58,375 nucleotides of DNA, from assembly GCA_032718475.1 (NCBI GenBank), contig JAUCBJ010003955.1, forward strand, positions 1 through 58,375. The letters run 5' to 3'. Shown piece after piece: positions 23,374 through 48,911 of the stretch. A program made the position numbers and the translations under genes. Position 1 is the stretch's first letter. Each line of letters begins with the position of its first letter. The notes below the pieces were generated by a model, which did no database searches, was not told where the DNA came from, and saw only the letters and a list, made by a program, of their open reading frames with translations. Origin of the DNA: Nemertoderma westbladi (Eukaryota; Animalia; Xenacoelomorpha).

Positions 23374-23543
23374 GTGGGGCGAGCCACGAAGTGAGTGAGC
23401 CTTAGCGTAGTGGTACCATTAATCAACCTGTCGTTCTTGTTCAATTTTAAACGTTAATAACTCGGCCAATCTTTGATGAAATCTATCCAAACTTGGTACA
23501 CATGTTGTTTGGCAAAAGTTTAGAAATTTTCCAAGTTGAATTT
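23374..23543 (-). repeat. Dispersed repeat A; inverted copy at ~25502-25685, with its terminal ~60 bp duplicated at ~25695-25755
   Basis: GTGGGGCGAGCCACGAAGTGAGTGAGCCTTAGCGTAG.GGTACCATTAATCAACCTGTCGTTCT is the reverse complement of 25623-25685. Confidence 0.85.
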
Positions 23544-23899
23544 CCGTGTGGCTTTCGAGAAGCTAAGATAATAGCAGTTAATTAGTTAATTAAGTTGATT
23601 ACGGTAAAAACACCATTTTCAACCTGCCTTTTAAAGGAAATTAATTGTTTTACAGTATAAGATTTAAATAATTATACTTAAAAATTATACAGATGTAATC
23701 CACATACGCCATTCTATTATAGTTTTTAATTAGTTCAAGTGATTTGCTTTAATAAATGTGTCTTTAATTGATCTAAACGTAATTAAACGGCACAATTATA
23801 GAGTACAAATTTAATCCTTCCCATTATTGGTCAAGTCTCTGCTGGTGTGGAGCTAGCTGCTGGGAGTTGTGGCTGTAGACTAACCAGAGAGGAATAGTA

Positions 23900-24288
23900 A
23901 CACGTTCGTGGGGCCTTCTCGCAGCACGAGGCCCAGTTATGAGATACAAATTAAAATTGAGCGACTGTATCACAAAATCAGTATTTGAGAAATTTAACCA
24001 CACCGCCAATCAATCAAAGAAAGGGGGACAGTACGTGTTCAGCCCTTTTAATCTGCACCCCCCCCCCACCCCCCCCACCCTTCCCACCTACCAATACATA
24101 ACCACAACATCTACCACCCACGGAAGGGTAGCACGAACTTATTTCCAATCGCACGTTCAATATGCAAAGCCAGGTGGTTTATAGGAATATAATAAACGCA
24201 GTACTCATTTTCATTATAAGCCTCGTTGCGTTCGTCCTGTTTTGTATTTAAATATATTTCCTAAACGCAGACTGACGATCTTTATAAT
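23900..24288 (+). repeat. Dispersed repeat B (~390 bp); inverted copy at ~26401-26790, partial copy at ~26233-26385
   Basis: Near-identical reverse complements (ORF track 23939+ vs 26751- give the same spurious peptide). Terminal hairpin GGGCCT...AGGCCC. Confidence 0.88.
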
Positions 24289-27256
24289 GCGTTAAATAGG
24301 CGAAGCCAGGTATGGTTTTGGTTTATAGGAATATAGTCTACGCAGCACTCGTCCTCATGAGCCCGAGTTATAGTTTGGCAATGTAGATGCAGCAGTTGCA
24401 CCCGACCAGCCGGAAACTCGGAGCTATAGGCCAGGCCTACTGCTTGTACAATGCGTGTCAATTTCAACACCGCTGGGCACTGGGTGATGGCAGAGTGAGA
24501 TTAAAAAACCGGATTATTTCATCCTCGGTTACGGTTAGTCCAGTTTGCCCATAGCGGCGGCAATACCTAAACTCGAGGTCAACAGACAGAGGCGGCCTTG
24601 GTCATTGGTGGTGAGTTGTTTGATTTCAATTCCAACACTTTTCTGGGCAGCTGGGTACACTCTGGTAGTGGGTACCTGAACTTAGAATGCCGGTCAGCTG
24701 GTTAGTCCGCATAACTTCCATTGTTGCAGTTGCCGAGTCGATGGATGGTTGGTAGGGGTAGGCCTATTGCTATTGTTGTATCTTGGCAGATTGGTATGTA
24801 CATCTACATCTGATTATACCAGTTGCCGGTGCTGTCGGTCGTACCAATATAGTCTTTAATTAACATATTTAACCGAGGCTTAACCTTAGATTTAACCTAA
24901 GAGCAGAAACCGTAAATGAAGAAATTAATTATCTTTCGTCGCTGACAAGCTGACAGGAACGTGGAAATGCGGTAGTGCTGTCGTAGTTCAGTACCATACC
25001 GCAGTACCGGGAGTTATGTAGTTGGCAGTTGCTACCGGTCCGGTTGTACAGTCTGACAGTAGTAGGGCAGTACGGTGGACGGTGCCAACGGACCCTCTAA
25101 ACTAATTCAGGACCGCAGGAAAGCAGTCCGCACTGCAATGTATGTCTAATTACTGAATTAGGGCCTACATAATTAGGATTAGTATACAGGATTAGAATAC
25201 AGAATTAGTATACGTGATCTATAATCACTGCACCGGTACTGCAGTACCAGTCAGCCAGTACCGTAAAACACCGAATACAGTATGTTATTGCAGTATTGTC
25301 TGATTGGAGGATTCCAGATTCAGGGATTGAGTATAGTACCGGTACAGGCCTCAATGCTATTACTGTAATTTCGTAATTTGCCAGAAACCCAGCTGATTTA
25401 GTCTCCTAGCAACCCACAGATGTCAAGCGTTATAATTTTGGATAAATAAATTTATTATAACTGTAAGACAGTTACACTGGTGCTGCATGAAGGTCCCAAG
25501 CAAATTCAAGTTGGAAAATTTCTAAACTTTTGACAGACAATTTTCTACCAAGTTTGGTGCATTTCATAGAGGATTGATCGAGTTATTAACGTTCAAAATT
25601 GAACACTGCAAAAAAAGCGACAGAACGACAGGTTGATTAATGGTACCCCTACGCTAAGGCTCACTCACTTCGTGGCTCGCCCCACAGACCAACAGAACGA
25701 CAGGTTGATTAATGGTACCACTACGCCAAGGCTCACTCACTTCGTGGCTCGCCCCATAGGCAACCAGTATTGCTATTCCAGCCCAGACAGCATTCTTTAA
25801 ATCCAACATCCCAACATCCTTCCCGTATTCCAATTCCTATTGACTCTACTATAAATGTTGTATTGCTATCTCAGGTAAATGACAGATATAATAACATAAA
25901 TACTATCCATGGCATGGCTGTTGTAGGCTTCTGAAATAGTTTATTCCACAATGTATATGTCTGGTTATTTTTTAATTGAATTTTTGCAAAGTAGTAACAT
26001 TAATGTTCTTAAAAATAATATTATTATTTTATATGTAACCTAGGAAATTAGCTACATTTTTTCGGTGCAGCTTTAAGAGTGTACATTGATTTAATATTAT
26101 TTCAATACCCATATTACTACATCGGCATACGATGCGTTGGCGTTGTATCACACATCTCCACATATCACACATCTCCACATAGATGTATCAACAGTTACTC
26201 GCACAGTTTCGAAATTTCGCATAGTTATAACTGTATAAAGATCGTCAGTCTGCGTTTAGGAAAAATATTTTATGACAAAACAGGACAAGCGACGAGCGCA
26301 ACGAGCGCAACGAGGCATATAATGAAGACGAGTACTGCGTTGACTAAATTATTATATAAACCACCTGGCTTCACATATTGATCGCATCCCTAGTTATTAT
26401 TATTATAAAGATCGTCCTAGCCTGCGTTTAAGAAATATATTTAAATACAAAACAGGACGAACGCAACGAGGCTTATAATGAAAACGAGTACTGCGTTTAT
26501 TATATTCCTATAAACCACCTGGCTTTGCATATTGAACGTGCGATTGGAAATAAGTTCGTGCTACCCTTCCGTGGGTGGTAGATGTCGCGGTTATGTATTG
26601 GTGGTTGGGAAGGGTGGGGGGGGGGGGGGGGGGGGAGATTAAAAGGGTTGAACACGTACTGTCCCCCTTTCTTTGATTGATTGGTGGTGTGGGTAAATTT
26701 CTCAAAACCTGATTTTGTGATACAGTCGCTCAATTTTAATTTGTATCTCATAACTGGGCCTCGTGCTGCGCGAAGGCCCCACGAACGTGTACATAGTGTA
26801 GCTTACATTGTACAGTGTATGCAATCCTACTTACAGAGAGAAACTCATATAGAAAGCACCGTGGTCGATAATGAGATTGTCCTGGGAATTGTTAGAGTTG
26901 TTGTTGTTCTGTGTGACACCAGCATCATCAATGCTTATGGTACATGGGATATTATAGAGCCTGTTGCTACAGTAGGCTCTACATACACTACAATTCTATC
27001 GTTCCAAATCAATGACAACGAATTCTTGTGAATAATAAAGCACTATGCTCTGTGTATTTCATTCGTAGTGTTCTGTAATTTAACTACAAACTTAATGTCG
27101 TCATTAATTTATTTCCTTATCGGGTTTCTAATATTTATTTATTTTATTTTATTTATTTATCCTTTAAGACAATATATCAAATACACAAAATACACAAATA
27201 ATATATTTTGACCCACACAGTACGCAAATAATAGCTGTAAGATACTAGTGCCGCCT

Positions 27257-29676: not shown

Positions 29677-30545
29677 ATAGTGTAAAGATGATAGAAAAAT
29701 AAAGTATTGAGTGTCTTTAGCTGGTTATATTATATTAGATAAAGATGCAATAGTAAACGTTTTCGACCTACCGGTCTGCATCAGACTATGGACTGGCAAC
29801 TAACTGGAAAAGGTGGGGGTCTATATATATATATATATAAGTTTTAAAGCGGAATACCTGATAGGTGAATCCCAGAAAGGTTAACGTGTATGTATGTACT
29901 GTATAGCGTAAGGTAATTGCGATAGGGAAAATATACATCGAGTTAGTTGTAAGCTGTCAATCTATGTTCCAAAATACTGTACGTAGATACTCCAAAAACT
30001 ACGATCTTGACATCAACATTAATGCAGTCACGAAGAACCCCACATCACTAGGACAAATACTAACCAAAAATAAAACTCAATCGCAAACACACACAAATAA
30101 CACCACTAATGAGCCATGTAACTCTAGCCGCTGCCTTACATGCAAAACTATCACTAACATACAACAGACACCATGGGGTGAAAAGATAAAAGGACACTAT
30201 ACATGTAAGTCCCACACTGTATGTTACTTGGCCTGGTGCCACTGCCACCCTACTCTATACTACATAGGCCAAACGAGACAGAAACTTCACGAACGGTTTA
30301 ATGGACAGCGCAACAACATACGACACGAGCGACCCCTCACGAGCCAATGACGGAAAAACACACGAAGACATACTCCTAGCTAGGCACATATACGGTTGTG
30401 GTTTAGAAAATCTACGCACCGCACCGCAATTCACAAACATACCCAAACTACTAGCGTTAGCGACGGAAGCTAACCTAATCTATACATACAACCCCCCACT
30501 TAACGTAGCAAGACCAGCAATCTAAACCCAACGTTTTATATAATA
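29677..30545 (+). mobile_element. Penelope-like element fragment with GIY-YIG endonuclease
   Basis: PCNSSRCLTCK...YTCKSHTVCYLAWCHCHPTLYYIGQTRQKLHERF...E..LI...NPPLN follows the Penelope CxxC + GIY-YIG pattern. Frameshift near 30340. Confidence 0.85.
29758..29784 (-). ncRNA. Hammerhead-ribozyme-like motif (PLE pLTR type, variant core)
   Basis: Minus strand reads CTGATGCA-GACC-GGTA-GGTC-GAAAACG: CUGA core, 4-bp stem II and GAAA, but the core deviates from CUGANGA. Confidence 0.45.
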
Positions 30546-30610
30546 CACCCTATATTCTATATCTTTCACAACTACAGTGCCCTCTATAGCGAATTTCCGG
30601 GGTTTTTATG

Positions 30611-31762
30611 TGTTCGCGCTTTTAGACCTTTAGCAGTTTAACCTGCCAATTTTAGTTGTCTTCTTGTTTATAAATCGACTTTAGCCTAGACCAATTATTT
30701 AATGTACTGAAGTTACATCCGCCGAAGCCAGTCTGTGCGCGATCATTCACCCACAGTTAAGGGAGACTGGATTCGGGTGCTTTGAAGTTATTGCGGTGCA
30801 GACCTATGTGTATTATTCGATTGATCGTTACTATATAATCTCTGACAAATATATTTACTTTCGGGGAAATATTAACAGTTCCTTTAGGACGTGGCGCTTT
30901 AAGTATAAAAACAGAGTTATGACTTATACTAATCACAACTAGATGGCTACTGAGTTTCGTAAATAGCGCATTCTTTAGGAGATGCTTTATTATCTGTCAC
31001 ACTACTTCACACGACTTCACACTACTTCACACTACTGCACACTGATCTGCCGACCGTCACTGAATTTGATCATATATAAGGAAGATCGCAACTGACACTT
31101 GTAGGGATTATGAAATAGCATTTAATTCACACAAAACCACTATAATTTGAGTCGCAGTTGCTACCGGTAACCTGTTCCTCTCACCTTCAGTAATCAAGAA
31201 GATTGGGGGTTTTATGAGTATTCATCAGTATTATCCAAATATATCAGCAATATATATCCATATAACAACAATTAATAACAGAAGTAAAATAATGCAGTGA
31301 ACAATCAGTATGTGTTACTTAATGCAAAAACCGTAAGTTATAAATGCAGAGTTCAATGAGTCAGTATGTCGGTAGGTGCCGAGAGTTGTTCAGATAATAG
31401 ATTTACGTTCTTATAATCAAAGCCATCAGATGTTTAGGCCAAAGTCTGAAACTTCCGAAACAGAAGTACAGAATAATTCCAAGCCGGTTCTTAGGCTCAG
31501 AAAGGTAAACAAAGACCGTAATGCATTGCGCGGTTTTCCATAGGCCCCTGTTCAACATAAAGTGAAAATCGCTCTGATTGGCTGAGCAGAACAAAGAGGT
31601 TCCACGTCTACAGGAAATCAGCTGACAGATTTCGTCATCTGAGCTCCAATCTTTTAGAGTATTATGCGCATTGTGGCAAAAATGACTTGTTATGTCCGCT
31701 AAAGCACCTACACTGTGCATTGCGGGGAAAAATGACTTGTTATGTCCGCAAAAGCTTTTACA
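30611..31762 (-). repeat. 3' LTR (1152 bp)
   Basis: Direct repeat of 47820-48911; carries extra 50-bp and 10-bp duplicated units. Confidence 0.95.
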
Positions 31763-31772
31763 CCGCTCCCAG
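31763..31772 (-). promoter_or_regulatory. Polypurine tract
   Basis: CTGGGAGCGG immediately precedes TGTAAAAGC on the minus strand; identical in the copy at 888-897. Confidence 0.75.
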
Positions 31773-31840
31773 AAAATGGGATTTAATTCTATAAAATATA
31801 AAAAATCACAGTTTCTAAAATATAAAAATACTCTAAACAG

Positions 31841-32839
31841 TTAGTCCTTCTTACATGAACGGCGTTTACGAAGTTTTTTGAGGCTAGCAAGAGTCCTTTT
31901 CTCTTTGGGGCGAGCCACTTTACTAGGAGGGCTATAACTCCTGGGTGAGGGGTGCAATACAATTGCATCGGAAGGTTTAGGGTTACAGTCGGTGTATCCG
32001 CCGGTCGAGGTACCCGGTTGATCGATATCAACCTCAGTGGAACGAGGTCGAACAACCTTTAGAGCGCGTTTCAAGACAGCAGCTCTTACTGGTCCTTGAC
32101 GAGTCGTTTGCACGAGAGCGGTAGGTGGACCGTGAGTAGTGAGAAATTTCCTCGGTTTGATGGTTCTTTCTAACTCGCGTTCTTGGGCTCTATATTCATA
32201 GGGTCGTCTATGAACTTCCTGTAGTTCTGGATGCGAGTTGATGAACAAGTCACCATATTCCGGATCTTGACGGATGAAGTTGATCAAGTTATAGGAATTA
32301 AGATCATTAGGATTAATGTTCCTGAGATACTTGCGAATAAATTTGGTCGAAATATTCTCGCCAACACGCTTCATTAGTTCGTAACTCGGTGTGCGAGATT
32401 TTTGCTCAACGGAAGCAAAGAGGTATGGGTGAAACGCATAAACTCCTTCATAGGCACGTCCAGGGTAGTATCGATGACGTGACTCGCAATGGAGATCCGC
32501 GTTAGCTTCCCAGGCTCGAATGTAGCGCAGGGCAACCATTTCGTCTACGCTTTCCAGATCTCGGTTGAAAGGGCAATCAAAACATGCGTGTCCTTTAAAC
32601 TGGCAATGATGGCATTGAGTCATAAATTGAGGGCAGACTGCGAAGATGTGTAAGTTATTGAGTCTACAATACGCACAATAGATCTCCATTGTAGGTTGGT
32701 CTTGGAAGTAGGAGCAGGGTATGTTGGAGTCCACTGGGGTGAAGTGGTCTCGTGATGCGCATAATCGGCAACGTTTCCAGAAACATAATTGGCATGCCGA
32801 TAATCGTAGGCGGTGAGACATTGTGGACCTTGATACCAT
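31841..32839 (-). CDS. Accessory ORF, C-terminal segment: CCHC zinc-knuckle cluster and basic tail
   Basis: CRLCASRDH..., CAYCRLNNLHIFAVC and the canonical CX2CX4HX4C CHHCQFKGHACFDC; ends KKLRKRRSCKKD. Confidence 0.7.
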   Translation of the reverse strand: MVSRSTMSHRLRLSACQLCFWKRCRLCASRDHFTPVDSNIPCSYFQDQPTMEIYCAYCRLNNLHIFAVCPQFMTQCHHCQFKGHACFDCPFNRDLESVDEMVALRYIRAWEANADLHCESRHRYYPGRAYEGVYAFHPYLFASVEQKSRTPSYELMKRVGENISTKFIRKYLRNINPNDLNSYNLINFIRQDPEYGDLFINSHPELQEVHRRPYEYRAQERELERTIKPRKFLTTHGPPTALVQTTRQGPVRAAVLKRALKVVRPRSTEVDIDQPGTSTGGYTDCNPKPSDAIVLHPSPRSYSPPSKVARPKEKRTLASLKKLRKRRSCKKD

Positions 32840-33003
32840 TCCAGAACGTAATCGTTGTCACTGCTTCTGGGCTCTGTGGGTTGAATCTCCTCGGACTCTA
32901 AGCAAATTGGTTCGTCTTCTAATTGCATAGCTGAGGTAGGCATAGCTGTCTCCTCAAGCGAACCCACTGTCTGAACTTCCACGATAGAATAACCCGTGGG
33001 GAT

Positions 33004-34731
33004 TCAGGGTCTTTGTATAACAGAGGAATGTAAGTTCTGTATACAAACGTCCTTGAAAATGGCGAATCCAGCGCTGTCTAACTTCTCAGCAGCTGAGTCT
33101 CTTAGGCTGAGCTTAGTCAGAGCGCGGTCCTTGAACTGACTATCAACGTTACGGAATGGAGTCAGAAAGCGCCTAAAGCATTCGAATCGGATGAATTTAT
33201 TGTGTTCATCTAGCTTGGCGAGTTTGGTTCCAAGTAACAAGGGATGGGCGCGTATAGTACGACTGCACACATCGGCTAGCCAACCGGCAAGTGCGGCGTT
33301 CTCGAAGATAGTGTATATAGCTAATGACGGACGAAGTGGAACACTCATGAAGCTATAAACGACGCCAGGTGCGGTCAATGGTCCGTTGAAGTATAATCGA
33401 GAATAGTGATCTCCATATACTTGTTGATAGTTGATAGGGTTTCCGACTTTGAAATTCCATCCGTATTCTTGAAAGGCAAGATATCCGATGGAGGTTCGTT
33501 GTACTTTATTGATGCCGCTGGATGTATTGGCATACATAGTGCGGAAGAAACCTCGGCCTTCTGCCCAGGGAGCAATCAGCTGGGTGTCTACGAAAGGATA
33601 TGGGATATTCTCCATGTTCCTGAAGTCGTTTTGGAGATCTCCATAAACAGCTGAGCCGATTTTAAGCATTCTTTCGTTAAACAACATCTCGAGCACTGGT
33701 TGGGGTAACATCGATCCATCTATACCCATGGCCGGTTTGCGCACGGTATCGGTGACGTAGCGCTGTGCGAGTTCGAATTGTCCATGTCGGAGTTTCTTTT
33801 GGATCTCGGTGAGAGTCTCAAAAGAATAATCGATCACGTCGGAACACGCTCGGGTAAACACATGGGTAGAACCAGCTAGTCCACGTATGTGTATCATCCG
33901 CGTAGTTCCCAGTTCTCCAACCGGAACGCTACCTTCATTATCATAAGTGACAACTCCATGCATTTCGATAACGTTAAGAGTTTCGTTCCACTCTTTGGTG
34001 GTGTTTTCTATGGTCATATCCACCGGATGCCATAAGGTGGCGCGTTCGCTAGCATTAGGTAGATCGCTATACTTCAGATAATGTGTAGTATATGTCTCTA
34101 CATCTCCATATCGCTGTATTCTCTCTTCCTCGAATAATACGTCGAGATTCCAATGGACTATTCGAGTTTTAATAAATCCATCGAGATTATATGGGGGAAT
34201 TATATCCTTTATTATTCTAGAAACATTGTAAGGTTTTCTGAATGAGTTTACTTTCACTAACTGATCCAGATGTTTCTGTAGTTGTTCGAGTTCAACAAGA
34301 TCGAGGGGATTTATCAGTGGTAGAAACCTCAAACTGTGTATAGGATCTTCCGGTTTCACCATATAATATTGAGTTAGATTGACATAATAAGGGTGGTCTT
34401 TGATCCCATAAAATGAGTTTGGTAAAGGTCTAGCGCGTAGGTTGACCTCGTGTACCATACGACGGACAAGATCCGCTCGATTGTCCGGAGGTTCAATGAG
34501 TATACCGTCGACACGAGCGGCTTCGATTGGCGGATGTTGTAACATAGGAGCGTCAGCGATAAGGTCTCGAGATCTTAGGTTGATATCAACCAGTTGGGGT
34601 TGTACCGTGGCGAAGAGTTTGTCTCCGAAATGGGGAACCATCGAGGGATGAATGATGGTTTTGGAATAGAGATCAGTCATAAGGATTTGAGCTTCTGGTT
34701 TGGCTAAAGCTGCTTCCTCTCTTTCGTCCAT
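33004..34731 (-). CDS. Accessory ORF, middle segment: DEDDy (DnaQ-like, WRN/EXD/Mut-7-type) 3'-5' exonuclease domain
   Basis: ExoI VVTYDNEG; ExoII region LPQPVLEMLFNERMLKIGSAVYGDLQNDF...FVDTQLIA; helix SIGYLAFQEYGW; ExoIII-like PLRPSLAIYTIFENAA. Confidence 0.7.
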   Translation of the reverse strand: MDEREEAALAKPEAQILMTDLYSKTIIHPSMVPHFGDKLFATVQPQLVDINLRSRDLIADAPMLQHPPIEAARVDGILIEPPDNRADLVRRMVHEVNLRARPLPNSFYGIKDHPYYVNLTQYYMVKPEDPIHSLRFLPLINPLDLVELEQLQKHLDQLVKVNSFRKPYNVSRIIKDIIPPYNLDGFIKTRIVHWNLDVLFEEERIQRYGDVETYTTHYLKYSDLPNASERATLWHPVDMTIENTTKEWNETLNVIEMHGVVTYDNEGSVPVGELGTTRMIHIRGLAGSTHVFTRACSDVIDYSFETLTEIQKKLRHGQFELAQRYVTDTVRKPAMGIDGSMLPQPVLEMLFNERMLKIGSAVYGDLQNDFRNMENIPYPFVDTQLIAPWAEGRGFFRTMYANTSSGINKVQRTSIGYLAFQEYGWNFKVGNPINYQQVYGDHYSRLYFNGPLTAPGVVYSFMSVPLRPSLAIYTIFENAALAGWLADVCSRTIRAHPLLLGTKLAKLDEHNKFIRFECFRRFLTPFRNVDSQFKDRALTKLSLRDSAAEKLDSAGFAIFKDVCIQNLHSSVIQRP

Positions 34732-35929
34732 TTCGATGTGCTTCTCCTCGAGCTGGTTTTCCTCCGCTTGTCATTGGAAGCGTTCGTCCAAAAACTTTTG
34801 CAGAGAATAGGTTCGTCCAAGTTCGATGTCTTCCTCGAGATTCTATAGGGGTTAAACCGGGACGATTATACGGGCTAAACGGCGACATTAAATGTCCGCG
34901 TCCCAATCCGGCTAGGTAGGATGGGTGAATATCTAGAGAGCCCACTACCGGAGCGCCACCGATTAATTGTTCAGGCAACACTAGATCTTTGAACAGTGAG
35001 TACAGTACGGGAGGATCCGTGATACTATTAGGATCAAGAGTCTGAGGTTTCACCAGGGAATGAGGAGATCTGATCGAGTATTCCGGAACTCCCATCATCG
35101 GTTTATTTAAGGATCGTTTGAGCCGAGCGAGCGTAGGTGATACGTCAAACAAGTTTCGCTCGAAACTCCCGTAAGTATAGCGAGTAAAACTGTGTTTAGC
35201 GCAACGTCTCCGCGGATGCCCACGTCCTTCCATTTGTTGGTTGGGTCTAGGGCATTCATCGCAATAATACCAAAGACGCACGTCTTGTAGGGGAAACGCG
35301 GGTGATCTTTCTCCAGTTTTACAATATTCCTCCATCTGTTCGAAGCTATCCGGTACAACAGGTAGAGGTCGATCGGCGGTAAGATACATCATAGTGAAAT
35401 AGAGTCGTTTGAGTTCTATCATAGGGTCAGGATGTATACCTTGAGGATATCGAGTTTCTAGGTTTTGTTGACTGGCTATATTGAGATATGTTTCTCTCGA
35501 GAATTCCAAATAGTCGTTGAAGTCACTACGTTTATCCGGCTCTTCAACGTCTTCTCTTTCGAGTTGGTTTCGAATAGAATTTTCGTGTTCGATTCTCAGT
35601 TTATCGTTCCGACTCCGCTGGGTATGATATTTAAATAGGATCATTTCCCTTTCGGTGTCTACATCGTCCGTATCGTGTAAATCGATAGGATGACCAGTAG
35701 TTAAGAAGTCCATATACGTACCATTACGATGCGTATAGCGAGCGGTGAATTTTCTATAGTCCAATTCACGCGTGAGTTGTTCCTTTGACATTGGCGGTTC
35801 GATATAATGGCCATCGTCCTCCGTAGTAGTTTGACTAGCATCGCCGCGTATTAAACTATCAACAAACGCTTGCAATGGTAGGGTATATCACTCCCTGATA
35901 CCAAGATCATCTTCTATCAACTCAGTCAT
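34673..35929 (-). CDS. Accessory ORF, N-terminal segment; unknown function, possible CxxC...CxxH zinc site
   Basis: 400-aa open frame. An in-frame ATG at 35929 is separated from it by one TGA. Contains WYYCDEC...RRCAKH and is homologous to 1-365. Confidence 0.6.
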
Positions 35930-37661
35930 AGCTGCTATATGAGTTTATCGATATTATAATTAATTATAATTAGGCTAGCGGTCGTCGCTGCCTCCCCCTC
36001 AATGCCCCCGGACAGCGCAAGATCCTCAGCGCTGATGTACTGTCGTCGCTGTGCCTCTTGCCAACACAGTAGCTACACAACGACAACAATAACCAGCTCG
36101 AGTCACTCCACTGTCCGTCCCAAGGGCTTAGAATTACTTCAGGTTATTGCTACAGAGGTAGGGCAACTTTCACAACTGCGCCTCGCTACTGTAAACATAC
36201 TTTAGTAGTAACATTCACCCATAAACGCACAAATTCCACACAACTGTCTCAAATTGTACACATTCGGGCCATTTGTCCGTTAGTCAAGTGCCTTCCAGAA
36301 TGCCACGTTATTATTATGTATTCCTGGATACTAGCAGTGCGCTATTTATTCCGTATGCTATTCAATGGGGCAAGCTTTCTATTGTTCTTTTAACTCGCTT
36401 CTAATTCTAGCGTGGTTGTTGCCATGGTGACATTATGGAAAGCTAGCAGTAGAATTTGGGTAATTCTCATGCATACAGATCTGGGATGCTATTTAATAGT
36501 AATTCTTTAATTGTCAATATTCCCCCTTATACATGATTTTATGAATTTTATCGGCTATTGACTATATGTTGGAGATTCTCGCACACTAATATACTTAATA
36601 GGGTGAATCTCCGCTCCCATGATCTATTAATGAATGGAATTTTGGGAATGTTATAAATTGCATAAAATGACAATTTATCAAATTCATGAGAGGATATGAA
36701 TTTAAAATTTATTCCTGTAAATTTTATTATTTAATATTAAAATAGACACAATTTTATTCCAGAACATATCTGAGGACTAGGATCCTTAATTCTAGGAAAT
36801 TTGTCTTTTTAAGAGTATCGGTAAGTGCTACAATATCTTAATCGACTAGCATTTTAAAGGATCTGAATTTTAACAGATTTTGGATTTCTAGATTTTCTTG
36901 GTTTACAAACTCCTTAGAGTTTATTTGTATGCATTTTCTCTATTATAACATTTGTTTTAATAGATTTTTATAAATATTAAATATTTAATATTTAAGATGG
37001 GCACCGATTTATTCCAGAGCTTGTCTGGGGACGTTAACCACTGATTCTAGAATTTTGTCTTTCAAGTATATCGGTGGGTGCCGCGATATCTTAATCGACT
37101 AGAATTACAGATGGTCAAAGGGTTTAACAGATTTATTTTGCGTTCTACGCTACTGTTAAAGGGACATCACGCCACTATATGTATTATTTAATATACAGTA
37201 TGAGAGCAATATTGCAAGGAGCAATGTCAGTGAGAAGAGGCAAGTCGTTTCCAAGGTCTATCCAGAGCTTGGTTTAGCCGAGACACGAGGATCTGAACTT
37301 TGCATTCCTAATACTCTACTTACCAATAATACTTGAGTATAGTAGGAGCTTTATTGTACTTTAATAAGTAAGGACATTTCATCTTACTGTAGTCACGTAT
37401 TTATAATATGATACGGACAGTAAGGAAAGAGAAAAAGAATTATTTCTCGCCATTGCACTAAATATATAATGCTAAGTAATTAATTAATAAACACGAATAT
37501 ATATATTGCACTAATCTACTAAATAATCGCTAAAATAACATTCTACTAAATAAAATTAAAGAAAACGATTATAATAAAATTACATAATAATACATACATA
37601 AATATAAAAATAATAAAAACAAATATAAAATAATGTAGTCACACACCTACTCCGTATGCTG

Positions 37662-38893
37662 TTACGTTGGGGAGTCCCTAGATGTTGGTTGGATTAGGGA
37701 AGTGGTCGTCGGAAGAGTATCTTGCCTTCCATAGTTTCCGGATAGCTCTCTGTCTCTTTCCAGTAAACATAAACGACCAATTGGGCGATTGAGTTGCTGT
37801 GTTTCGAATACAATTCCAGGTTTCTTAAAGTTACGTCGCATGACGACGAGTTCTACCGATCGCACTAAACCATCATCGGATATATGAGTCTCGATGATAC
37901 GACCTGTCTGCCACCGCTTACGTGGAAGATCTGATTCCACAATAAGGACCATGTCTCCGGCGTTGACGTTTTCTTGCTGCGCAAACCACTTGGTTCGAAG
38001 TTGTAGCATAGGCAGATAATGTTTTTCGAAATGGTCAGCGAAATGACGGGATAATAACTGCATGAGTTGCCAAGTTTGTCGGCAGTATTCGTCTCCATCC
38101 GTGATTTCCGATTGTGGGAGCATGGCTACAGGTTTCTTCAGTAGGAAATGCGCGGGTGTTAGCGTTTCTAGGGAGTCGGGACTCGATGAGACTGGCATAA
38201 GTGGTCTCTCGTTAAGATAGGCGGCGATTTCTTCCATTAACGTCCGCAAAAGTTCGTCGGTGAGATACGCGCGGCAAGGCACTATAAAGTGAAATGCGGT
38301 CTTTACGCTCCTTATTAATCTCTCCCAACTTCCTACCCACCAAGGGGCGTCGGCGGCGTTGAAGGTCCAGCTAGATGCTGTTACCCCTAGCTGATCGTCC
38401 ACCTGTCTTTGGTTCCAATCTTTAACGTAAGCTTTGATCTCATTATTGGCGCCAATGAAGTTCGTTCCCCTATCAGATCTCATCGTGTTGCTAGTTCCAA
38501 AGCAAGCGATCTGTCGGTGTAAACTCAGTATGAAGCTGTTGGTAGATAGATTGTTCACCATATCTAGATGGATCGCTCTACAAGTCATACAGACAAAGAT
38601 GACACACCATCGCTTGACTATAGTCCTAGCACGATATACTTCAATAGGGCCAAATAAATCCACACCAGTATTGGTAAAGGGTGGTTCATAGAAGCATACT
38701 CGTTCCCTAGGTAATTCTGCCTCTCGCTGTGTTAAAGGCCTACTCTACTGAATGCTTTCCTACAGGGTATACAGTTCCTAAGAACTTGGTTCAAAGCTCT
38801 ACGGGGTTTATGGAAATAATAGCGAGTTCGAATTTCGCTAAGAACTCATTCTCTACCAGCATGGTAAAGCCTACTGTGAACATCTACAATCAT
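37662..38893 (-). pseudogene. pol: pol integrase (HHCC + DDE core + BEL C-terminal domain), disrupted
   Basis: VHSRLYHAG*..NCIPCRK zinc finger; DLFGP, RSDRGTNF, WERLIRSVK; LNERPL, LTPAHFL, RTKW. Confidence 0.93.
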
Positions 38894-41800
38894 CTTGATT
38901 TGTATTTCAAGATTTCTAATGAGATGGGAAACTTAGTGTCAAAGGATAATGGAGCATTAGTTAGTCTCCCTCCAACACGTATTAATCCATCTATCATGGT
39001 GCTAGAGAAACGATCCCTTAAGCGCATCTGTGGATTTCTCAACAACAGGAAATACTTATCGGAATCTTCATAGCATTGCAAGAGTCTCAGTATCTGCTTA
39101 TTGGTTTCTTCATGCTCCTGGTAAATGATCTTCTCCGTCAGAAACCTATCCGACACTTTGTATGTGGGAAGATCTTTAATAGCATGGACCTGCTCGGATG
39201 TCAGTGGAGCGGTATCACTAGCGATCTTCGTCCTGGAGTAGTGATGATGGAAGCATCGCTTCAAATACACGACGGCCTTACAAAGCCGATTCCAGGAGCT
39301 ATAGTGATTTATTGCTTTCTGCAGGAGAGGTGAGAGTCCTTGCGAGACATCTGGTGTTCCAGATTTCCAGTCTCTTTCTCTGATGTCTATAACAGATCTG
39401 TTCATGGTGGGGGAGTTTAGATCCACAGCGTCGTCCCTGGAAATGTGTAGTACAGACAGATCTATCACAGGTTTAAATAACTTTGATTTACTCGTACGGG
39501 TTTTAGGTTTGACTTTCTCCGCTCCCTTGGCTTGTCTAATCTCAGCCATAGTGAGATGAGGAGGCCATTCATCCTCTTCTTTACTTAGGAAGTAGGGTCC
39601 ACCCAACCAGTCCGGACTATCTATCAGTTCTTGAGGGGTTGCTCCTCTGGAAGCGATGTTGGCTGGATTAATCATCCCAGGGCAATGTCTCCATTGATCT
39701 ACATTACAGCGACTAAGTATAATGGCTACTCTGTTGGTAACGAAGACGCTGAACTGACAGACTTCATTGGTTATATACTCCAAAACGAGTAAAGCATCAG
39801 TCCAATAGACAGTTTTCTCCAGTGGATAGTCGATCTGTTCTGTTACATTCCGGCCGATGGCTGTAGCGTGTAGAGCCGCCTTTAACTCCGCTCGAGGAAC
39901 TCGTAGTTTGTTGTTTATCAAGGCCTTAGATGTGACCAAGGCAACTTTGATTCCATCTGTAGTTTCAACCCTCAGGTAGGCTACTATACGTATTCCCATA
40001 TCGCTGGCGTCTCCAAACACATGGAGTTGATAGGAATACGTGGGGAGAACGTGACCAAAATATGAACGGAAAATCGTAAAGTTCTCGATGGATGGTAGAG
40101 AATCTTCCCATTTCATCCACTTCTTTAGTAGTTCTCCCTTAAGTGGATCGTCCCACGAGTGGTTTTCAAGCCACATTTGTTGCACTAAGCTCCGAGCAAC
40201 CAATATAACTGGGCTAATAAATCCCAATGGATCGAAATAAGTGCTCAGGATACTTAGACAAATCCGTTTAGTTCGAACTGGATTATCTCGCTGTTTTAGC
40301 TGGAAAAACAATATATCTCTCTCCGTGTCCCATTTTAAACCAAGCGTCTTGGTTTCTGGAAGATCGTTCTTGATGAGGTCCAGATCTTTAACACCTCGGT
40401 CTTCTACCGGGATCGATTCCAGAAACTCACGGGAGTTACTAGTGAATTTGGTTAGTCGAAATCCACCGCGTCGCAAACGCTCTACCATTCCCTTGGCAAC
40501 ATCAATGGCTTCTTCCACCGATGGGAGGGACTTTAAATTGTCGTCCATGTATATATCCCGTTTGATGTTGTCGATAACCGCTTTAGAGAAGGCGTCTCGG
40601 TTGTCATCAGCAGTGGTACGCACTACTGAACAAGCATTCGAGGGGCTCGAGATGATCCCGAAAGCCTGGATGGTCATCCAGTACTCCACCGGTTTTTGGT
40701 TGAGGTCTCCTTCAGGCCACCACAGAAATCGTAGGCTGTCTCAATCCCTATCCAGCGCCTTGACTTGTAAGAACATGCCTTCTATATCCGAAGCGAAAGC
40801 GATAGAATATTGCCGCAATCTTAATAGTATTCCCAACAAGGATTGGAGTAAGTTGGGTCCCGGCAATAATTCCGAGTTCAGGGATTGGCCCATGTAAAGG
40901 GCAGAGCCGTCGAACACTACCCGGACTTTGTTGGGTTTACCGGGTTTGGGAACGTAATGATGTGTTAGATAATACGTTCTCTCGGTTATGGGTGTTTCTT
41001 CCGGTACTCGCTCCGCGTATCCCTTGTCGATAAATTTCTTCAGCTGGGTTTTGTACATTTTCCAAGCTGAAACATTGGCCGTAAGACGCCGATGTAGTTG
41101 CGCGATTCTCTTTTCTGCTAAGGGTCGGTTATTTATAAAGTTGGGTTCTCGCCGTCGGAACGGAAGACCAATCTCATAGCGACCTTGATCTTTAAGAAAA
41201 CGGGTAGTCGTTTCCTGAATCTGCTTGGCTCTCTCTTCCTCGACGGACAAGGACTTGTCGTAGGAATTAGGCTCTACGGCTTCTTGAGTAAAGAATCGTA
41301 CAGCGTGTTCATCGCGAATTTTATTGTTGTATCGATCTATCACCTCGTTTAATTCGTCGTTGTAGGTGAATTGTCCGCCAGGATTGATAAGATGGCACAG
41401 GTTTTCTTGGTTTAACCAAGCTTCACTTTCGGTGAGGAGATCGATTGTATTTTCCTCGTCGAATAATTGGTTAATATCGTCATTATCTGAGGAGTATGGT
41501 GTTCCCTCAGTTGTGGTTTCTCCCTCACTAATTTCTTCTTCCCATACACTCACCTGATGGATCCTCTCCTGAGGGAGTCTTTCCATTAGTGTTCTACGGG
41601 AAGGTCCAGTGAAGTACCAACCTACTCTCGTTCTTCCCGCGTACGTTTGTAATGGTTGCGGTCGAGCAGGCCGTTTTTCTAATGTCTCTAGCGCCTCGTG
41701 CGCATTTTGGCCGATCAATATCTGTACCCCTGGGTAGTTGGTGTTGAATCTAGGGATATCATGCTGCTGGGTAAAATGGTCTTCATCCCAGTTGTAAGGT

Positions 41801-42135
41801 TCCACTTGGCTGGTAGCAAAGTTCTTTATCGCCACCATTTTTACTGACCTTATGCTATGTTCTCCTAGTTCATCCTGGGGAGTGGACAACGCGCCTACAT
41901 AGTAATCTGTAGCTACTGTGGATTTACAAACCTGCATAATTCCTGAAAGGTTCAACTTAGTTCGGAACTTGGGTTGTCCAGCAAAGATGTCTTCGGCTAG
42001 TTCTTTGTCGATGAATGTACCTGTGCTGCCGGAGTCAAGGAGGGCGTTTACTATCAAACTTTCCCTAATCCATGGACTCTCAGCTGCACTACAGGGAATT
42101 CCTGGATTCCGACGTTGGAAGTCGGCGCTTTCCAA
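38890..42135 (-). pseudogene. pol: pol protease, reverse transcriptase and RNase H (Pao type), disrupted
   Basis: ALLDSGS protease; KVRVVFDGS, LLPGPNL, SDIEGMFLQ, YMDD RT; FGDAS, VPRAELKAA, YWTDA RNase H. In-frame stop at 40741. Confidence 0.95.
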
Positions 42136-45100
42136 GATGGTTGCCGGTCCAGAATAGTCAGTCGAGGGTCTTCCTCGCTGGTTTCAGTCTCATACGTAAG
42201 TGCTCGATACACTGCGGTGTTTATCATATAACAGGATTCGTTTTCGTCGGAGAATTCGTCCGTGTAGAATCCTTCCATCTCAGAGCTGTAGTCAGTGTCG
42301 TTCACATCACTGAATTGGACATGTAGTTCGGGCTCACTTACCTGACTCGTGCGGGTTCTGTCAAATTCTGTGTGCAGCAAGATATGATGGTTCGTGCCGC
42401 ACTTAGCACACCTCGCGTCTGAGTAACAGGTCCGCCGTTGGTGTCCTTGTCTGAGACAATTATAACACAACCGCTTATCCCACATGACATCTCGTCTATC
42501 CTTTAGGGACTTCTTCAAGAATTCATCACATCCACTCAAACGATGGGGCCCGTCGCACAATGCACATTTGGGTTTGATATTACTTACTTTAACCTGTGTG
42601 GTGTTGTGCACACTTGTTCTTTCCTTGGACTTTCTTCCATGAATTCTCTTAGGAGACGTAGGAGGAGTTGTTGTTACCTATTCTCTCCTGTCACTGGTTC
42701 GAGACTTAGATTTACTTACATCTTTCCTTGTTTTGTTGACATAATAAGATCTTTCGGTGTCTTTCCCGCTGTTCTCCTCGTGGGAGGTCTGGCTTTCGCC
42801 GTCGTCTGTATATCACACTGGTGTTACCTTTCTCCTAGAAATGGGTTTTTCACTCACCTTATTTTGCGGTGTCTTCTCTCGGGACTGCTTTAGGAGCTGT
42901 AATCTTACCTCTCCATTTAAGAATGACATGAGATCAACCATGGTAGGGTCTCTTTGTTGTTGGTCCATCATATAAAGAACTCTTTTGTCCCAACGAGTAC
43001 CTACTCCACCCTTTGGCAAAGTAGATGCTACGGCTCCAACAACCATGGAACTCTGATATTCATGAGACATACCTAACCAATCTAGTTGTCTACAGATCTC
43101 CTGAATCTCATCGGAAAACTCTATAATCCCGCTGCTAAGGAACTTTCGGGGCGCTACTAATTTCGCATACAAATACCTAGCTATGTTAGTCCTATTACCA
43201 TACCTGATGTTTAGTGTATCCCAAACTTGTCTTAATCCATCTGGATGTCCAATAAACTTTAACGCCATTAACTTGGGAGGTCCTTCCAAGCACTCGATGA
43301 GGAATCTAAGTTTCTCTCCGTTAGATAGTACAGAGTTCTGTATGTTATCTTTATAATATTCATTAAAAGGTAACCATTTCATCTCATCTCCATTAAACTT
43401 GACGATCTCTCCCACAAATTCCTCACCCATAAATTTCCCGGATTGTGATCAGGTCTATATGGAATATCATTATCAACAGGTTTATAATTATCCTTAATAG
43501 GGTTTACTATAGGAGTTTCTACTTCACTATCAGTATAGATGCGTGTAGGCTCCACACCTTGCGCATGAAATACTTCAGACCTAGCAGGTTGACACATTGT
43601 TACAGGGGGTGGTGGTATACCCTTTTGTATATTTACTAATTTATCACGCTCTAACGCGATACTCTGCTGCACTTCTTGCAACTCTAACCTACTCTCTCTT
43701 ACTGTTCCCTTTAACTGCTGAACAGTCCCTTCCAACTCCCGGACCTGCTGGGAGGAACGTATACGATGCTCCTCCAGCTGCCCGAGGAGGAGATCTATCC
43801 CCCGCCGTCCCTCGTCTACCCACTCGACCGTCGAAGCGGGAGCCGCCAACGTAGTAGCGGGTTGACGAGCAGGGACGATGGGCGACAAATCGGTGACAAA
43901 TTGCTCGGCGCCAGGACCAGGAGTGGTTCAGGGGCTGTTCTGCTGGGCACAGGTAGTTTAGTACTGTGCAAAGGGAATTTAGAGTTAGGTTCTGGAAGTA
44001 CAGGTGTCTCTATCACAGAGGGAGTTTCGAGAACAGGCCTAATTATTTCAGGCTCATCTACTATAGTAGGGATAGGGATTCTTTCTACTCTAATAATTTG
44101 GTCTGTAGGCTCAGGATTACTTAAATCTACCCTAGCTAGTTGCCTTCTCACAGCTGGAGGCAAATTAGGCAATTTCTGCCGGTGTGGCGCTCTTCTACGT
44201 CCGCTGGAACGAGATTTATTTCCTCTACCTTCAGGATCTGTTGTATTGCCTTCATCAGAGGATGTAAATCCCTGTCTCCTGGGAGTATATCGACTTAGCA
44301 GCTGCATCTGAGTAGCTGTTCTCTGTTTATTTAAGTAATCTTGCTTCGCTTGAAGATTTTCCAACTCTAGTTGGGTTGTCTCTTCAGACGCTCGTCTTTC
44401 TGCTTCAGCCACTGCCGCTTTTCTTTCAGATTATGCTGCTGCCGCTGCTGCCTTTCTTTCAGCTTCTGCCGATTTCCTTTCAGATTCTGCCGCAACCGCT
44501 GCCGCTTTTCTTTCAGCCTCTGCCGCTTTCCTTTCAGATTCTGCCGTGACCGCTGCCGCTTTTCTTTCAGCCTCTGCCGCTTTCCTTTCAGATTCTGCCA
44601 CGACTGCTGCCGCTTTCCTTTCAGATTCTGCCGCGACCGCTGCCGCTTTCCTTTCAGATTCTGCTGCGGCTGCTGACCTTCGGTCTTCTATTTGCTTTTT
44701 CTTTAGCTGCTCTTCTTGGTCCATAGCGATGAGGATGCTTTCATCAAATTTAGCCTGCTCCGCGGATACTATTTCCGCATCTAATGAGTCTAACACAAAT
44801 TTGGCTCCCTCACTATTAGGGTGAAGTCCAGCTAGCCGTCTCCTTAACTCTTTATCACCTATAAATTGTTGATAGTCCGACAGATAGATGTCAATAGCAT
44901 CCTTCTTCTGAGGTTTCTCTGATGTAACTTCGCTTTCCACCTGAGAAAAGGTAGCGTCTGTTGATTCTCCGTGGGTCATGCGCTCGGTTAGCTGAGCTTT
45001 CCATTGTGTCGTTCCCTGGACTTTAAGACTCACCCATTGGAACCAAGTCTTTACGGCCACTTGCAACGATGTGAATTGGCTTCTCTTCGAAGCTTCCTCA

Positions 45101-45854
45101 AAGGCTGAAAGGATTAGTCTGATCCGTAAAATTCGTTCTCGCACTTGATAAAGCTGCTCTCCCTGCTCTTGAGGTACTTGACGTTGTTGGAATAGGTGTT
45201 CTTCTAATCGCTCCAAAGAACTGAAGAATCCCTGGACATATCCTGCTGCCGACCTCTTCCACACAGCTGGATCTCGAGTGTCCCTTACTACTCCCATCCT
45301 GTATAAGTCCTCCCAGGCAGCTTCCGATAAGTTAAACGGAAGTCCGGGTCGGGGGAAGTTCCATTGCGTCTCGACAATAGACCTCAGTTCCTCCATCGTG
45401 TATCCCGCATAACTGTCCTTAGTCGATCGCTTACTTCTCGCCCAATCGATTTGATGTTCCTCCACAGCTATCAACACTCTAGTGAGTACAGCTCCAGGAA
45501 GAATTAGAAGTGGATCTGGATAAACCGCTTCTGCCATCTTTGCTCTGATCTCGGGTGTCAACTTACAGTGTCGGATCTACTGGAGTTATCGGGCCGCTGA
45601 GAAATAAGTTCCCGGTTCGGGTGCTGCTGCTGTTTAACAGCTGCCTCTTGGTCCCGCTTGACTTGAGCCCTAGTGCCTATGATAGACCTATGGTGCTTTA
45701 CTAGCCTAGGGTCTGATACTACTACTGTAGGGATGACCTTTCTCACAGTAGGAGGGGACTTGGACCTCGGTCTCAGATTTTCTATACTCCTATCTGAGTC
45801 ACAGACTGTTCTTTCTAGGAGACTATCTGACAGTGTTTGTTTTGTGTCAGCCAT
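42054..45854 (-). pseudogene. gag: BEL/Pao gag region, fragmented by stops and frameshifts
   Basis: IVKFNGDEMKWLPF...EKLRFLIECLEG (DUF1759-like); triple knuckles CALCDGPHRLSGC, CYNCLRQGHQRRTC, CAKCGTNHHILLH; N-terminal Ala/Glu coiled-coil repeat. Confidence 0.88.
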
Positions 45855-45992
45855 TATTGATTTTACAGTTGAATGCCTACTACTATAACGACAGTTAAAG
45901 CAAGTCTAGTAATTCAGTATCAACTGTAAGCCTAGTAATTAACTACCGATACCGTTACTTACTCAGTGTAACGTGATATATATATAATATAT

Positions 45993-46243
45993 TAAAATAC
46001 CGGTATACACTTATAGTATATGTATAAGTATTATTACAGACTAGGTTTAGTCACAGAATACCGGTATATAATTTCAGCATAAATTTATATAAATATATAT
46101 AGTAAGCCTACCGTAAATACCGGTATACACTTATAGTATATATAAGTATTATTATAGACTAGGATTAGTTACAGAATACCGGTGTATAATTTCAGCTTAA
46201 ATTTATAGAAATAAATATAATAAGCCTATCGTAAATACCGGTA
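45993..46243. repeat. ~120-bp tandem duplication in the retrotransposon 5' UTR
   Basis: AAATACCGGTATACACTTATAGTATAT...AAGCCTA.CGT repeated twice plus the start of a third unit. Confidence 0.85.
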
Positions 46244-47819
46244 ATGTCAATTATTGATAATAACTGAATTTCTGAATTTTAGGGTTACTTTCCTTTACTT
46301 TATTACTGTTATTAAGCAGTAGTCCAACTGATATTAAGACCTAATTGATGTATAACAGGCCTACTATTTTATAACTCGGTTTGAGTTGATTTATAATATA
46401 TTATGTACCCGTACAAGGGTTTTTGACAATATTTGAAATAAATGTTATTATTTCTGGGTAAGGAGTCACTACACAGAAGCTGAACGCTCTCAGTGGAGTG
46501 CTACTTGTTGGATACTAAAACGAATAATTATACTTTACTAAGTTACTTATCACTACAAATTACTTACAATTACAGTTTGAGATTACAATCTCTAAATAAA
46601 CACTAAAAAGTTACACATACAATTTTTTAGGGTAATTTTACAAGAAATCTACAAACCAGCCTAACAAGGAGTTAGAATTTCTGGTTCTTACAAACTGACA
46701 GGAAACTATGGTAATTGAAAACAATAAAGCAGTAGTAAGTAAATTGCGTTGTCCAGATAAGAAAATACCACCGTCTGACGACTTATAGTCTTAGCTCTAT
46801 AAGTACTACGTTATGTACCCGGAGTGTCCTTACCTAGAAGTTAATTACCGCAGCCAACCAGAGCTAACGTGCCTATTAACCACTTTACAACACAAATATA
46901 CTGCCTACACACTAATTACTTTCGGAAAGCACTGTACTCTAAACCCTAAATTAGGTACAAGTACTTATACAACAAATAACCAGCAGTTAAATATACTTGA
47001 ACAGCCAAAAGAACCATGGTATCTGCTGGAGTGACCGGAGCACAAAATCACCAGTCTTTACCTACGCCAAGCAGCCCTGATGTAGTACCGGGGTTAATTT
47101 AACTATAACGGTATGTATAACAAGCACAATTACTGTAGGAATAAACTTGGGGGGTTGTAGGTTGCGAATACTCGCATAGACTCTGAATAATAAATATTAC
47201 GCTACCCGTGCAGACTATACAAACAAAATACAGACCAAATGCTGGCAGACTACTGGCAAGCCTAAATAAACTACAGTATATGCAGACTCCGAAATGGTTA
47301 GTTAGTAGGCGTTCTAACCAAGTAGTACGACTTATTCTTTCGGGGGGATTTACCTTACAATACTGGATGCCCCCACCTTCCTATCTAGCACTTTATCGGA
47401 AAGACACTCTACACACACTGCAATCGCTTCAGACCTAACAACAGTCAGACAACAATCCGGCCTACAAATTATTTATACAATCTGAGCAGGCTTACACGCC
47501 TTCTGCTCAATATTACACTTATAGAAAAATAAAACTGACAGAAATAAATAAGCTCTAAAAGAAATAAGGGGTGTACAGTCCCTAATCTCTTAAACAGCCT
47601 ACCAATATACAATATGTCACAATCGAAATAATACTGGTACCGGTAAGTACTGGTTCGGGTGGTTAGGTAGTTAGGCCTACAGTTTACCGTCCGACCAGTA
47701 CATTCGAATTTATTGCCTACGGTGCAATAAAGAAACTACAAAACTATTAATGTTCTTACCAGAACAATAGACAAAACATATTTATTGACTACTGTGCAAT
47801 AAAGAACAAAATCTATTAT

Positions 47820-48911
47820 TGTTCGCGCTTTTAGACCTTTAGCAGTTTAACCTGCCAATTTTAGTTGTCTTCTTGTTTATAAATCGACTTTAGCCTAGAC
47901 CAATTATTTAATGTACTGAAGTTACATCCGCCGAAGCCAGTCTGTGCGCGATCATTCACCCACAGTTAAGGGAGACTGGATTCGGGTGCTTTGAAGTTAT
48001 TGCGGTGCAGACCTATATGTATTATTCGATTGATCGTTACTATATAATCTCTGACAAATATATTTACTTTCGGGGAAATATTAACAGTTCCTTTAGGACG
48101 TGGCGCTTTAAGTATAAAAACAGAGTTATGACTTATACTAATCACAACCAGATGGCTACTGAGTTTCGTAAATAGCGCATTCTATAGGAGATGCTTTATT
48201 ATCTGTCACACTACTTCACACGACTTCACACTACTGCACACTGATCTGCCGACCGTCACTGAATTTGATCATATATAAGGAAGATCGCAACTGACACTTG
48301 TAGGGATTATGAAATAGCATTTAATTCACACAAAACCACTATAATTTAAGTCGCAGTTGCTACTGGTAACCTGTTCCTCTCACCTTCAGTAATCAAGAAG
48401 ATTGGGGGTTTTATGAGTATTCATCGGTATTATCCAAATATATCAGCAATATATATCCATATAACAACAATTAATAACAGAAGTAAAATAATGCGGTGAA
48501 CAATCAGTATGTGTTACTTAATGCAAAAACCGTAAGTTATAAATGCAGAGTTCAATGAGTCAGTATGTCGGTAGGTGCCGAGAGTTGTTCAGATAATAGA
48601 TTTACGTTCTTATAATCAAAGCCATCAGATGTTTAGGCCAAAGTCTGAAACTTCCGAAACAGAAGTACAGAATAATTCCAAGCCGGTTCTTAGGCTCAGA
48701 AAGGTAAACAAAGACCGTAATGCATTGCGCGGTTTTCCATAGGCCCCTGTTCAACATAAAGTGAAAATCGCTCTGATTGGCTGTGCAGAACAAAGAGGTT
48801 CCACGTCCTCAGGAAATTAGCTGACAGATTTCGTCATCTGAGCTCCAATCTTTTAGAGTATTATGCGCATTGTGGCAAAAATGACTTGTTATGTCCGCTA
48901 AAGCTTTTACA
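47820..48911 (-). repeat. 5' LTR (1092 bp)
   Basis: Direct repeat of 30611-31762, flanked by TSD TTATG. Confidence 0.95.

Follow-up and report, generated by a model that had tools for sequence, protein, structure and literature searches.

What occupies the env position of a giant BEL/Pao retrotransposon, and does it serve the element that carries it? BEL/Pao elements are metazoan. The window analyzed here, 58,375 nucleotides of Nemertoderma westbladi contig JAUCBJ010003955.1 (assembly GCA_032718475.1), contains one such element, in which a first-pass annotation had seen a DEDDy-type 3′-5′ exonuclease in place of an env-like gene. We examined the boundaries of the carrier, the ancestry of the predicted nuclease domain, the evolution of the frame among copies of the family, and the functions that would fit.

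The carrier element and its cargo

The element was delimited by its LTR pair, its target site duplication (TSD), and its Pfam domains. Its parts, in window coordinates, are as follows.

30611..48911 (−), full BEL/Pao LTR retrotransposon, 18,301 bp, a decaying copy
30606..30610 (+), 5-bp TSD, TTATG; the other copy is at 48912-48916
47820..48911 (−), 5′ LTR, TGT...ACA; 11 mismatches to the 3′ LTR in 1,092 aligned bases
42054..45576 (−), gag region with a coiled/repetitive part, DUF1759, and zinc knuckles, in several broken frames
38890..42183 (−), pol with protease LLDSGS at 42042, RT YMDD at 40551, and a Peptidase_A17 region, in two broken frames
37662..38744 (−), integrase and DUF5641, a further frame
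35930..37661, AT-rich noncoding spacer of ∼1.7 kb from pol to cargo, with a diverged repeat of 253-bp period
34673..35887 (−), cargo frame A, 404 codons, without a known domain
33004..34731 (−), cargo frame B, 575 aa, bearing the predicted exonuclease domain; ATG at 34731, open from 34770
32620..33003 (−), extension of frame B past its stop (33006-33004), 127 more in-frame codons
31841..32857 (−), cargo frame C; it has a basic tail and two, perhaps three, CCHC-like zinc knuckles (the two from 32677 and 32614)
31763..31770 (−), polypurine tract GGGAGCGG, just before the 3′ LTR
30611..31762 (−), 3′ LTR; close to its start, a short stretch is duplicated internally

The LTRs are 1,093 and 1,152 bp long and have diverged by 1.0%. 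The empty site, in which position 30605 is joined to 48912, is present in the contigs of three of the four public runs. Frames of the element matched Peptidase_A17 (E value of 1.5e-35), DUF5641 (2.4e-21), and DUF1759 (1e-12), all above the Pfam cut-off, and the protease, YMDD, and integrase motifs stand in the BEL order, Gag being followed by PR-RT-RH-INT with Pao-type domains. Among the features by which BEL/Pao elements (Belpaoviridae) are recognized, the following were found: LTRs of 0.2 to 1.2 kb bounded by TG...CA, the order Gag-PR-RT-RH-INT, a TSD, and a polypurine tract. The gene order, the Pao-specific domains, the ∼1.1-kb LTRs, and the polypurine tract agree with the ICTV Belpaoviridae/Semotivirus profile, which gives a size of 4.2 to 10 kb and lists only env-like third genes (PMC8742986). 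The window element differs in its length of 18.3 kb, nearly twice the listed size, and in having a predicted nuclease as the third gene. No TGG start of a tRNA-Arg/Gly primer-binding site was seen next to the 5′ LTR (window positions 47760 to 47819); the site may have decayed or be atypical. With gag and pol split over several frames, the window copy is decaying and is probably inactive. Its leader between the 5′ LTR and gag is ∼2.2 kb long, and the N-terminal gag frame contains tandem ESERKAA(A) repeats (44354-44700, minus strand), by eye a predicted long coiled coil. An Rfam search of positions 29000 to 51000 gave no match, and the window contains no tRNA gene.

Beyond the integrase and the spacer, in which a promoter of its own or a splice acceptor for the cargo may lie, come ∼4 kb of coding sequence made up of frames A, B, and C, a larger cargo than the first-pass annotation had described. 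Frame B sits on the same strand between the integrase (38744-37662) and the 3′ LTR (31762-30611), so that the LTR pair, the Pfam domains, and the integrase together bear out the first-pass placement of the gene in the env slot of a BEL/Pao element. The 575-aa frame itself was recovered on the minus strand, with all four of the motifs quoted for it within a few bases of where they had been placed. The exonuclease domain lies ∼3.6 kb past the integrase stop and is not fused to pol. An env-like third gene was rejected: the four cargo frames contain no transmembrane helix (highest 19-residue hydropathy, 1.2), and the viral fold matches, where named, are exonucleases and DNA polymerases. Nor is the cargo likely to be a separate nested element. 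No internal terminal repeats were found, ∼80 bp separate the end of frame C from the 3′ LTR, and in a second copy of the family (window positions 1 to 2171) the LTR is linked to both frame A and frame C. The linkage of cargo and integrase is that of the window copy, as no contig spans both. The cargo frames may represent a single broken gene or more than one gene. An ESM Atlas search with frame C returned only leads below 0.9 (DUF8363 and zf-CCHC).

The element is itself flanked by a 98% identical inverted repeat (29677-30362 and 49774-50458), and a frame at 29907-30350 (+) resembles by eye the end of a GIY-YIG endonuclease, with no Pfam match. Given these two features, the BEL element may have inserted into, or next to, a Penelope-like or foldback element.

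A predicted DEDDy exonuclease domain

Residue numbers below refer to P0001, the 588-aa stop-to-stop version of frame B. Its motifs were ranked with matrices built from reference sequences only.

33241..34035 (−), predicted DEDDy-type 3′-5′ exonuclease domain, residues ∼246-510 of P0001
33931..33954 (−), ExoI, VVTYDNEG, with D277 (33942-33940) and E279 (33936-33934); matrix rank 2 of 580, nearly tied with ranks 1 and 3
33622..33708 (−), ExoII, LPQPVLEMLFNERMLKIGSAVYGDLQNDF, with K370 and D378 (33639-33637); matrix rank 1 of 569
33580..33594 (−), RNase D-like DTQ motif (FVDTQ), with D395; matrix rank 1 of 580
33301..33339 (−), probable ExoIII, PLRPSLAIYTIFE, with Y486 and E490 replacing Asp; matrix rank 3 of 572

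A single homologue, P0002 (648 aa), was found among 1.84 billion representatives (E value of 1.6e-4). In this protein all four sites rank first with the same matrices, in the correct order. P0002 aligns with frame B from ExoII through ExoIII (pairwise E value of 9e-13) and, separately, with frame C across the knuckles (5e-5), so that a layout of exonuclease plus knuckles is common to both. In P0002 the exonuclease is followed by the CCHC knuckles, and ExoIII reads Y-x3-E-N as in the window frame. D277, E279, D378, and Y486 are kept in the two proteins at 26% identity. A homologue search with P0001 gave none at an E value of 0.001, and searches with P0002 and with a two-sequence profile (word-limited, the profile search covering longer proteins only) gave only P0002. 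No related loci were found in viral, metagenome, or prokaryote contigs, and tblastn against phages and plasmids gave nothing meaningful. Among the metagenome contigs, 21 loci fitting the ExoII pattern were discarded as chance matches (best E value of 0.12, no retroelement hits).

Three remote-homology tests pointed the same way. In an ESM Atlas feature search, 24 of the 30 neighbors carry PF01612, at a score of 0.91 that shuffled sequences approach (0.9 in 4 to 10 of 100 cases); 156 of 256 features are common, which is in the distant-relative range. In hhalign, where the match spans the ExoII-DTQ region only, the two-sequence profile matched 12 bacterial RNase D sequences with a probability of 89% (score of 46.7; best of 40 shuffles, 19.1) and all 58 references with 91% (46.8 versus 18.4), the best shuffle scores being 18 to 25 across reference sets. 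The probability was 10% against 10 WRN/EXD2-like sequences, which are bacterial proxies, and 2% against eight PolA sequences. These references are 58 of 60 stretches, L111 and L121 being left out, and 50 of them entered alignment A2. The third test was the motif matrices, which placed ExoII and DTQ first, ExoI second, and ExoIII third in the window frame. Direct matches were weak (TIGR01388 RNase D, E value of 0.013; PF01612, 0.2 for P0002). At the Pfam gathering score the window frame had no match, and P0002 reached 11.9 bits against a cut-off of 23.6. In sequence searches of the PDB, frame B had no match and P0002 matched CCHC knuckles only. When the window frame was added by itself to the reference alignment, it reached four of six invariant columns with ExoIII misplaced. 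Four columns were also reached by an unrelated pol frame and by 7 of 151 shuffles; P0002 reached five of six, as no shuffle did.

Fold prediction of frame B as a single sequence had a pLDDT of 33. A model from a mixed alignment had a pLDDT of 70 overall and ∼80 to 90 around the motifs, with a pTM of 0.66, but 50 bacterial DEDDy sequences in that alignment supplied the fold, and the model is therefore taken as a sign of compatibility, not as independent proof. Its top matches were tied (RNase D, Klenow exo, diDNase/NrnC, WRN, Egl, and EXD1; Z of 12.6 to 13.8), and the wider matches, including Nibbler and RRP6, had Z of 11 to 14 and an rmsd of 3 to 5 Å over 160 to 185 residues. In a quick tree with bacterial references only, P0001 and P0002 formed a long-branched pair outside the four groups. 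Taken together, the language-model neighbors, the profile-profile match, and the motif matrices, with the partly circular agreement of the model, uphold the first-pass proposal of a DEDDy/DnaQ-like fold, which the domain of frame B can be predicted to adopt with little doubt. The WRN/EXD2/Mut-7 subtype named there found no support: bacterial RNase D profiles scored 89% against 10% for the WRN/EXD2-like bacterial proxies, the fold matches being tied, and the domain seems closer to RNase D than to WRN/EXD2. It resembles the PF01612 domains of RNase D, RRP6, WRN-exo, EXD1, Nibbler, and Egalitarian in predicted fold, motif order, ExoI DxE, ExoII K..D, and DTQ. It differs from them in its low identity (10 to 17%, below the Pfam cut-off), in two insertions of ∼30 residues, and in YxxxE for YAAxD.

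The tied matches to Klenow exo, WRN, and diDNase could also suggest a role on the DNA side, in which the enzyme would trim cDNA ends before integration or proofread an oversized genome, by analogy with nidoviral ExoN. The 18.3 kb of the element, against 4.2 to 10 kb for the family, would fit such a role, as would the cDNA-end function proposed for Dada DEDDy domains in the accessible part of PMC3706591. However, the domain is separate from pol, PolA-exo profiles match poorly, and the 30-kb Burro elements have no listed exonuclease in the portion of PMC6431247 available. We regard a DNA-side role as distinctly unlikely, and the proofreading idea of the first-pass annotation found no support.

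The least certain motif is ExoIII, whose register is the weakest link of the predicted site; an alternative register at Y472 (matrix rank 2 of 572) would place Ser at the last Asp. Across the 52-sequence alignment, which is weak evidence when taken alone, D277, E279, K370, D378, and Y486 do not vary; the last-Asp column is Glu in P0001 and P0002 and Asp in 50/50 references. The ExoI DxE and ExoII Asp expected of PF01612 are therefore present (D277, E279, and D378), whereas the canonical ExoIII YxxxD is YxxxE, in an uncertain register in the window frame, and for this reason the domain is best described as DEDDy-like, not as a canonical member. Glu at the corresponding Asp may leave the Klenow exonuclease partly active, but a literature search found no paper on this, and it is not used as evidence here.

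This substitution raises the alternative of a catalytically dead RNA-binding scaffold, which would package or localize the RNA of the element in the manner of EXD1 or the exonuclease-homology domain of Egalitarian. The Glu shared by both proteins, or the Ser of the alternative register, would suit a dead site, and the CCHC knuckles would suit RNA binding. Egl is among the top fold matches (Z of 13.0), and its putative catalytic residues lie ∼15 Å from RNA and are dispensable, according to the part of PMC13186709 available. Against this, the other four residues are conserved between distant proteins and the fourth site still holds a carboxylate, and the rotifer ORF3 proteins discussed below, which also exchange an Asp for Glu (DEED), were judged intact (PMC5408684). 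A dead scaffold thus appears somewhat improbable, and we lean toward residual catalysis despite the Glu at ExoIII.

Copies of the family and selection

The frame might be a neutral captured host fragment, or its likeness to exonucleases a matter of chance. Such an origin would be consistent with the lack of a curated family match, with a motif alignment that is by itself near chance, and with a copy broken in several frames. To set against these are the open frame of 575 codons, the homologue with the same two-part layout, the three concordant remote-homology tests, and the substitution pattern among copies.

The family is large. In run X1, 110,204 contig records fall on the element, and the exonuclease stretch alone is found in 1,084 contigs of run X3 and 37 of run X4 (two studies with the same organism label) at 80 to 100% identity. 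Among the best-supported 40 of 207 differences, 26 are synonymous in frame B, compared with 11.7 expected; read in the two remaining minus-strand frames, 6 and 8 are synonymous. None of 100,000 simulations reached the value for frame B, and pN/pS is ∼0.22. Within the same 40 differences, none changes D277, E279, D378, D395, Y486, or E490. The one difference listed in the E490 codon is synonymous, from which it follows that Glu at 490 is not a lesion of the window copy. The first-pass reading of the last catalytic Asp as Glu is accordingly supported, here and by P0002, at the motif whose register is least certain. The ratio of synonymous to nonsynonymous differences in this set is 16:6 for those that vary between copies and 10:8 for near-private ones, the latter as expected if the window copy now drifts. 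No indel in the exonuclease domain reached 5%. Contrary to the main trend, five of the six frame B differences listed in the whole-element comparison are nonsynonymous. Compared with the decayed second copy, frames A and C look close to neutral (14 synonymous and 26 nonsynonymous; 7 and 13). From these comparisons of sequence, the exonuclease frame is very likely under purifying selection across copies; it is present family-wide and not only in one neutral copy. A neutral fragment or chance likeness, already largely refuted, is very unlikely.

The same abundance and variety could instead point to an antisilencing factor, a nuclease-knuckle protein that would trim or sequester host piRNAs, siRNAs, or their precursors and so let the family amplify. 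Nibbler and EXD1, which are small-RNA factors, are among the neighbors of the predicted structure, and the existence of exonuclease-deleted copies is compatible with a factor acting in trans. On the other hand, change in the domain appears purifying and not diversifying, whereas proteins in an arms race may often change fast, and the rotifer DEDDy ORF3 does not clearly track copy number (PMC5408684). We therefore consider antisilencing rather unlikely.

Deleted forms of the element were observed in several places. The second copy in the window (1-2171) is decayed, lies in the opposite orientation, and is 75 to 88% identical; its frame A is fused to frame C and the LTR, the exonuclease being deleted. 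A nearly identical junction, from 31995 to 34724, is present in contigs of three runs, and several contig joints also lack the exonuclease. In all four runs, a joint skips ∼1.76 kb including the RT core (window positions 39705 to 41470), likely reflecting a nonautonomous subfamily.

Proposed function and related elements

An RNA-binding 3′-5′ exonuclease reads best, because three acidic residues, the Tyr, a carboxylate at the fourth site, the DTQ motif, and the knuckles are all present. We tentatively propose that the accessory gene encodes a divergent RNase D-like DEDDy exonuclease with CCHC knuckles, which binds the RNA of the element and trims RNA 3′ ends. Antisilencing and a dead RNA-binding scaffold are the strongest rivals to this proposal. 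A separate accessory unit between the integrase and the 3′ LTR would yield the enzyme, whose knuckles and exonuclease domain would work as one protein, as in P0002. Through its nucleocapsid-like knuckles, the protein would bind the element's own RNA, and 3′ ends would be trimmed during particle assembly or reverse transcription. RNA is probably the substrate; that the target is the element's own RNA is plausible, at slightly less than an even chance.

Accessory nucleases of this kind have precedents. Juno and Vesta are Ty3/gypsy-type elements of bdelloid rotifers. In these LTR elements and in Terminons, an RNase D-like DEDDy ORF3 replaces env; its DEDD site has become DEED, and RNA 3′-end processing or silencing was proposed as its role (Rodriguez, Kenefick, and Arkhipova 2017, PMC5408684). 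The cargo described here is similar in that an RNase D-like DEDDy domain follows pol in the env slot, has no transmembrane part, carries one Asp-to-Glu exchange, and invites the same proposed roles. It differs in the position of the Glu, which is the third in Juno and Vesta and the fourth here (DEDE), in its BEL/Pao carrier, in its ∼4 kb of cargo with CCHC knuckles, and in its evident selection, the likeness being one of description. The word BEL is absent from the rotifer paper (PMC5408684), and none of the rotifer ORF3 proteins came up in the homologue searches. A DnaQ-like domain is termed a well-known accessory of LTR transposons in the part of PMC6338049 available. As far as the accessible parts of PMC3706591 and PMC9587614 describe them, Dada (DEDDy) and KolobokD (DEDDh) are likewise mobile elements with DnaQ-like exonucleases, but they are DNA transposons, and the Dada domain lies within the transposase and keeps all four acidic residues.

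For BEL/Pao elements, no report of exonuclease cargo was found in the literature searched, which consisted mostly of titles and abstract openings; Repbase, GyDB, the full ICTV report, and subscription journals may hold some. The word exonuclease is absent from the available main text of four BEL/Pao surveys (PMC3118150, PMC13524379, PMC8556966, and PMC6238403), whose supplements may differ. The first-pass annotation knew of no exonuclease at this position in BEL/Pao elements, and the literature searched gave none; for LTR elements at large, an env-slot DEDDy protein was published in 2017, with the same two functional proposals (PMC5408684). Systems of this kind are already known, but a BEL/Pao carrier, a DEDE site, and a layout with knuckles do not seem to have been described before.

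With this locus, predicted exonuclease cargo in the env slot reaches beyond the LTR elements of rotifers into another LTR superfamily, and the signature of purifying selection among copies is a type of evidence lacking for the ORF3s in the 2017 rotifer paper. This favors the view that retroelements have recruited DEDDy nucleases repeatedly, as a general strategy. Since the domain is compact and two distant members share its Asp-to-Glu exchange, action on the element's own RNA, action against piRNAs, and binding only could be told apart directly. A more speculative scenario, which we consider improbable, is that a giant BEL/Pao lineage took its DEDE exonuclease and knuckles from a pool shared among superfamilies and uses it as a suppressor to trim or destroy host piRNAs, which would explain its very high copy number.

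Three features of the window lie outside the element. A GC-rich satellite at 10500-23000 has a 49-nt unit in ∼240 copies with higher-order structure. At 23373-26790, nested inverted repeats ∼2 to 2.5 kb apart probably represent a foldback or MITE-like element. A single GC-rich frame of 641 codons at 55421-57346 (−) contains eIF3_p135 and TPR repeats, in what we take to be a Clueless-like layout; mobile elements or giant viruses can carry domains of these types in animals.
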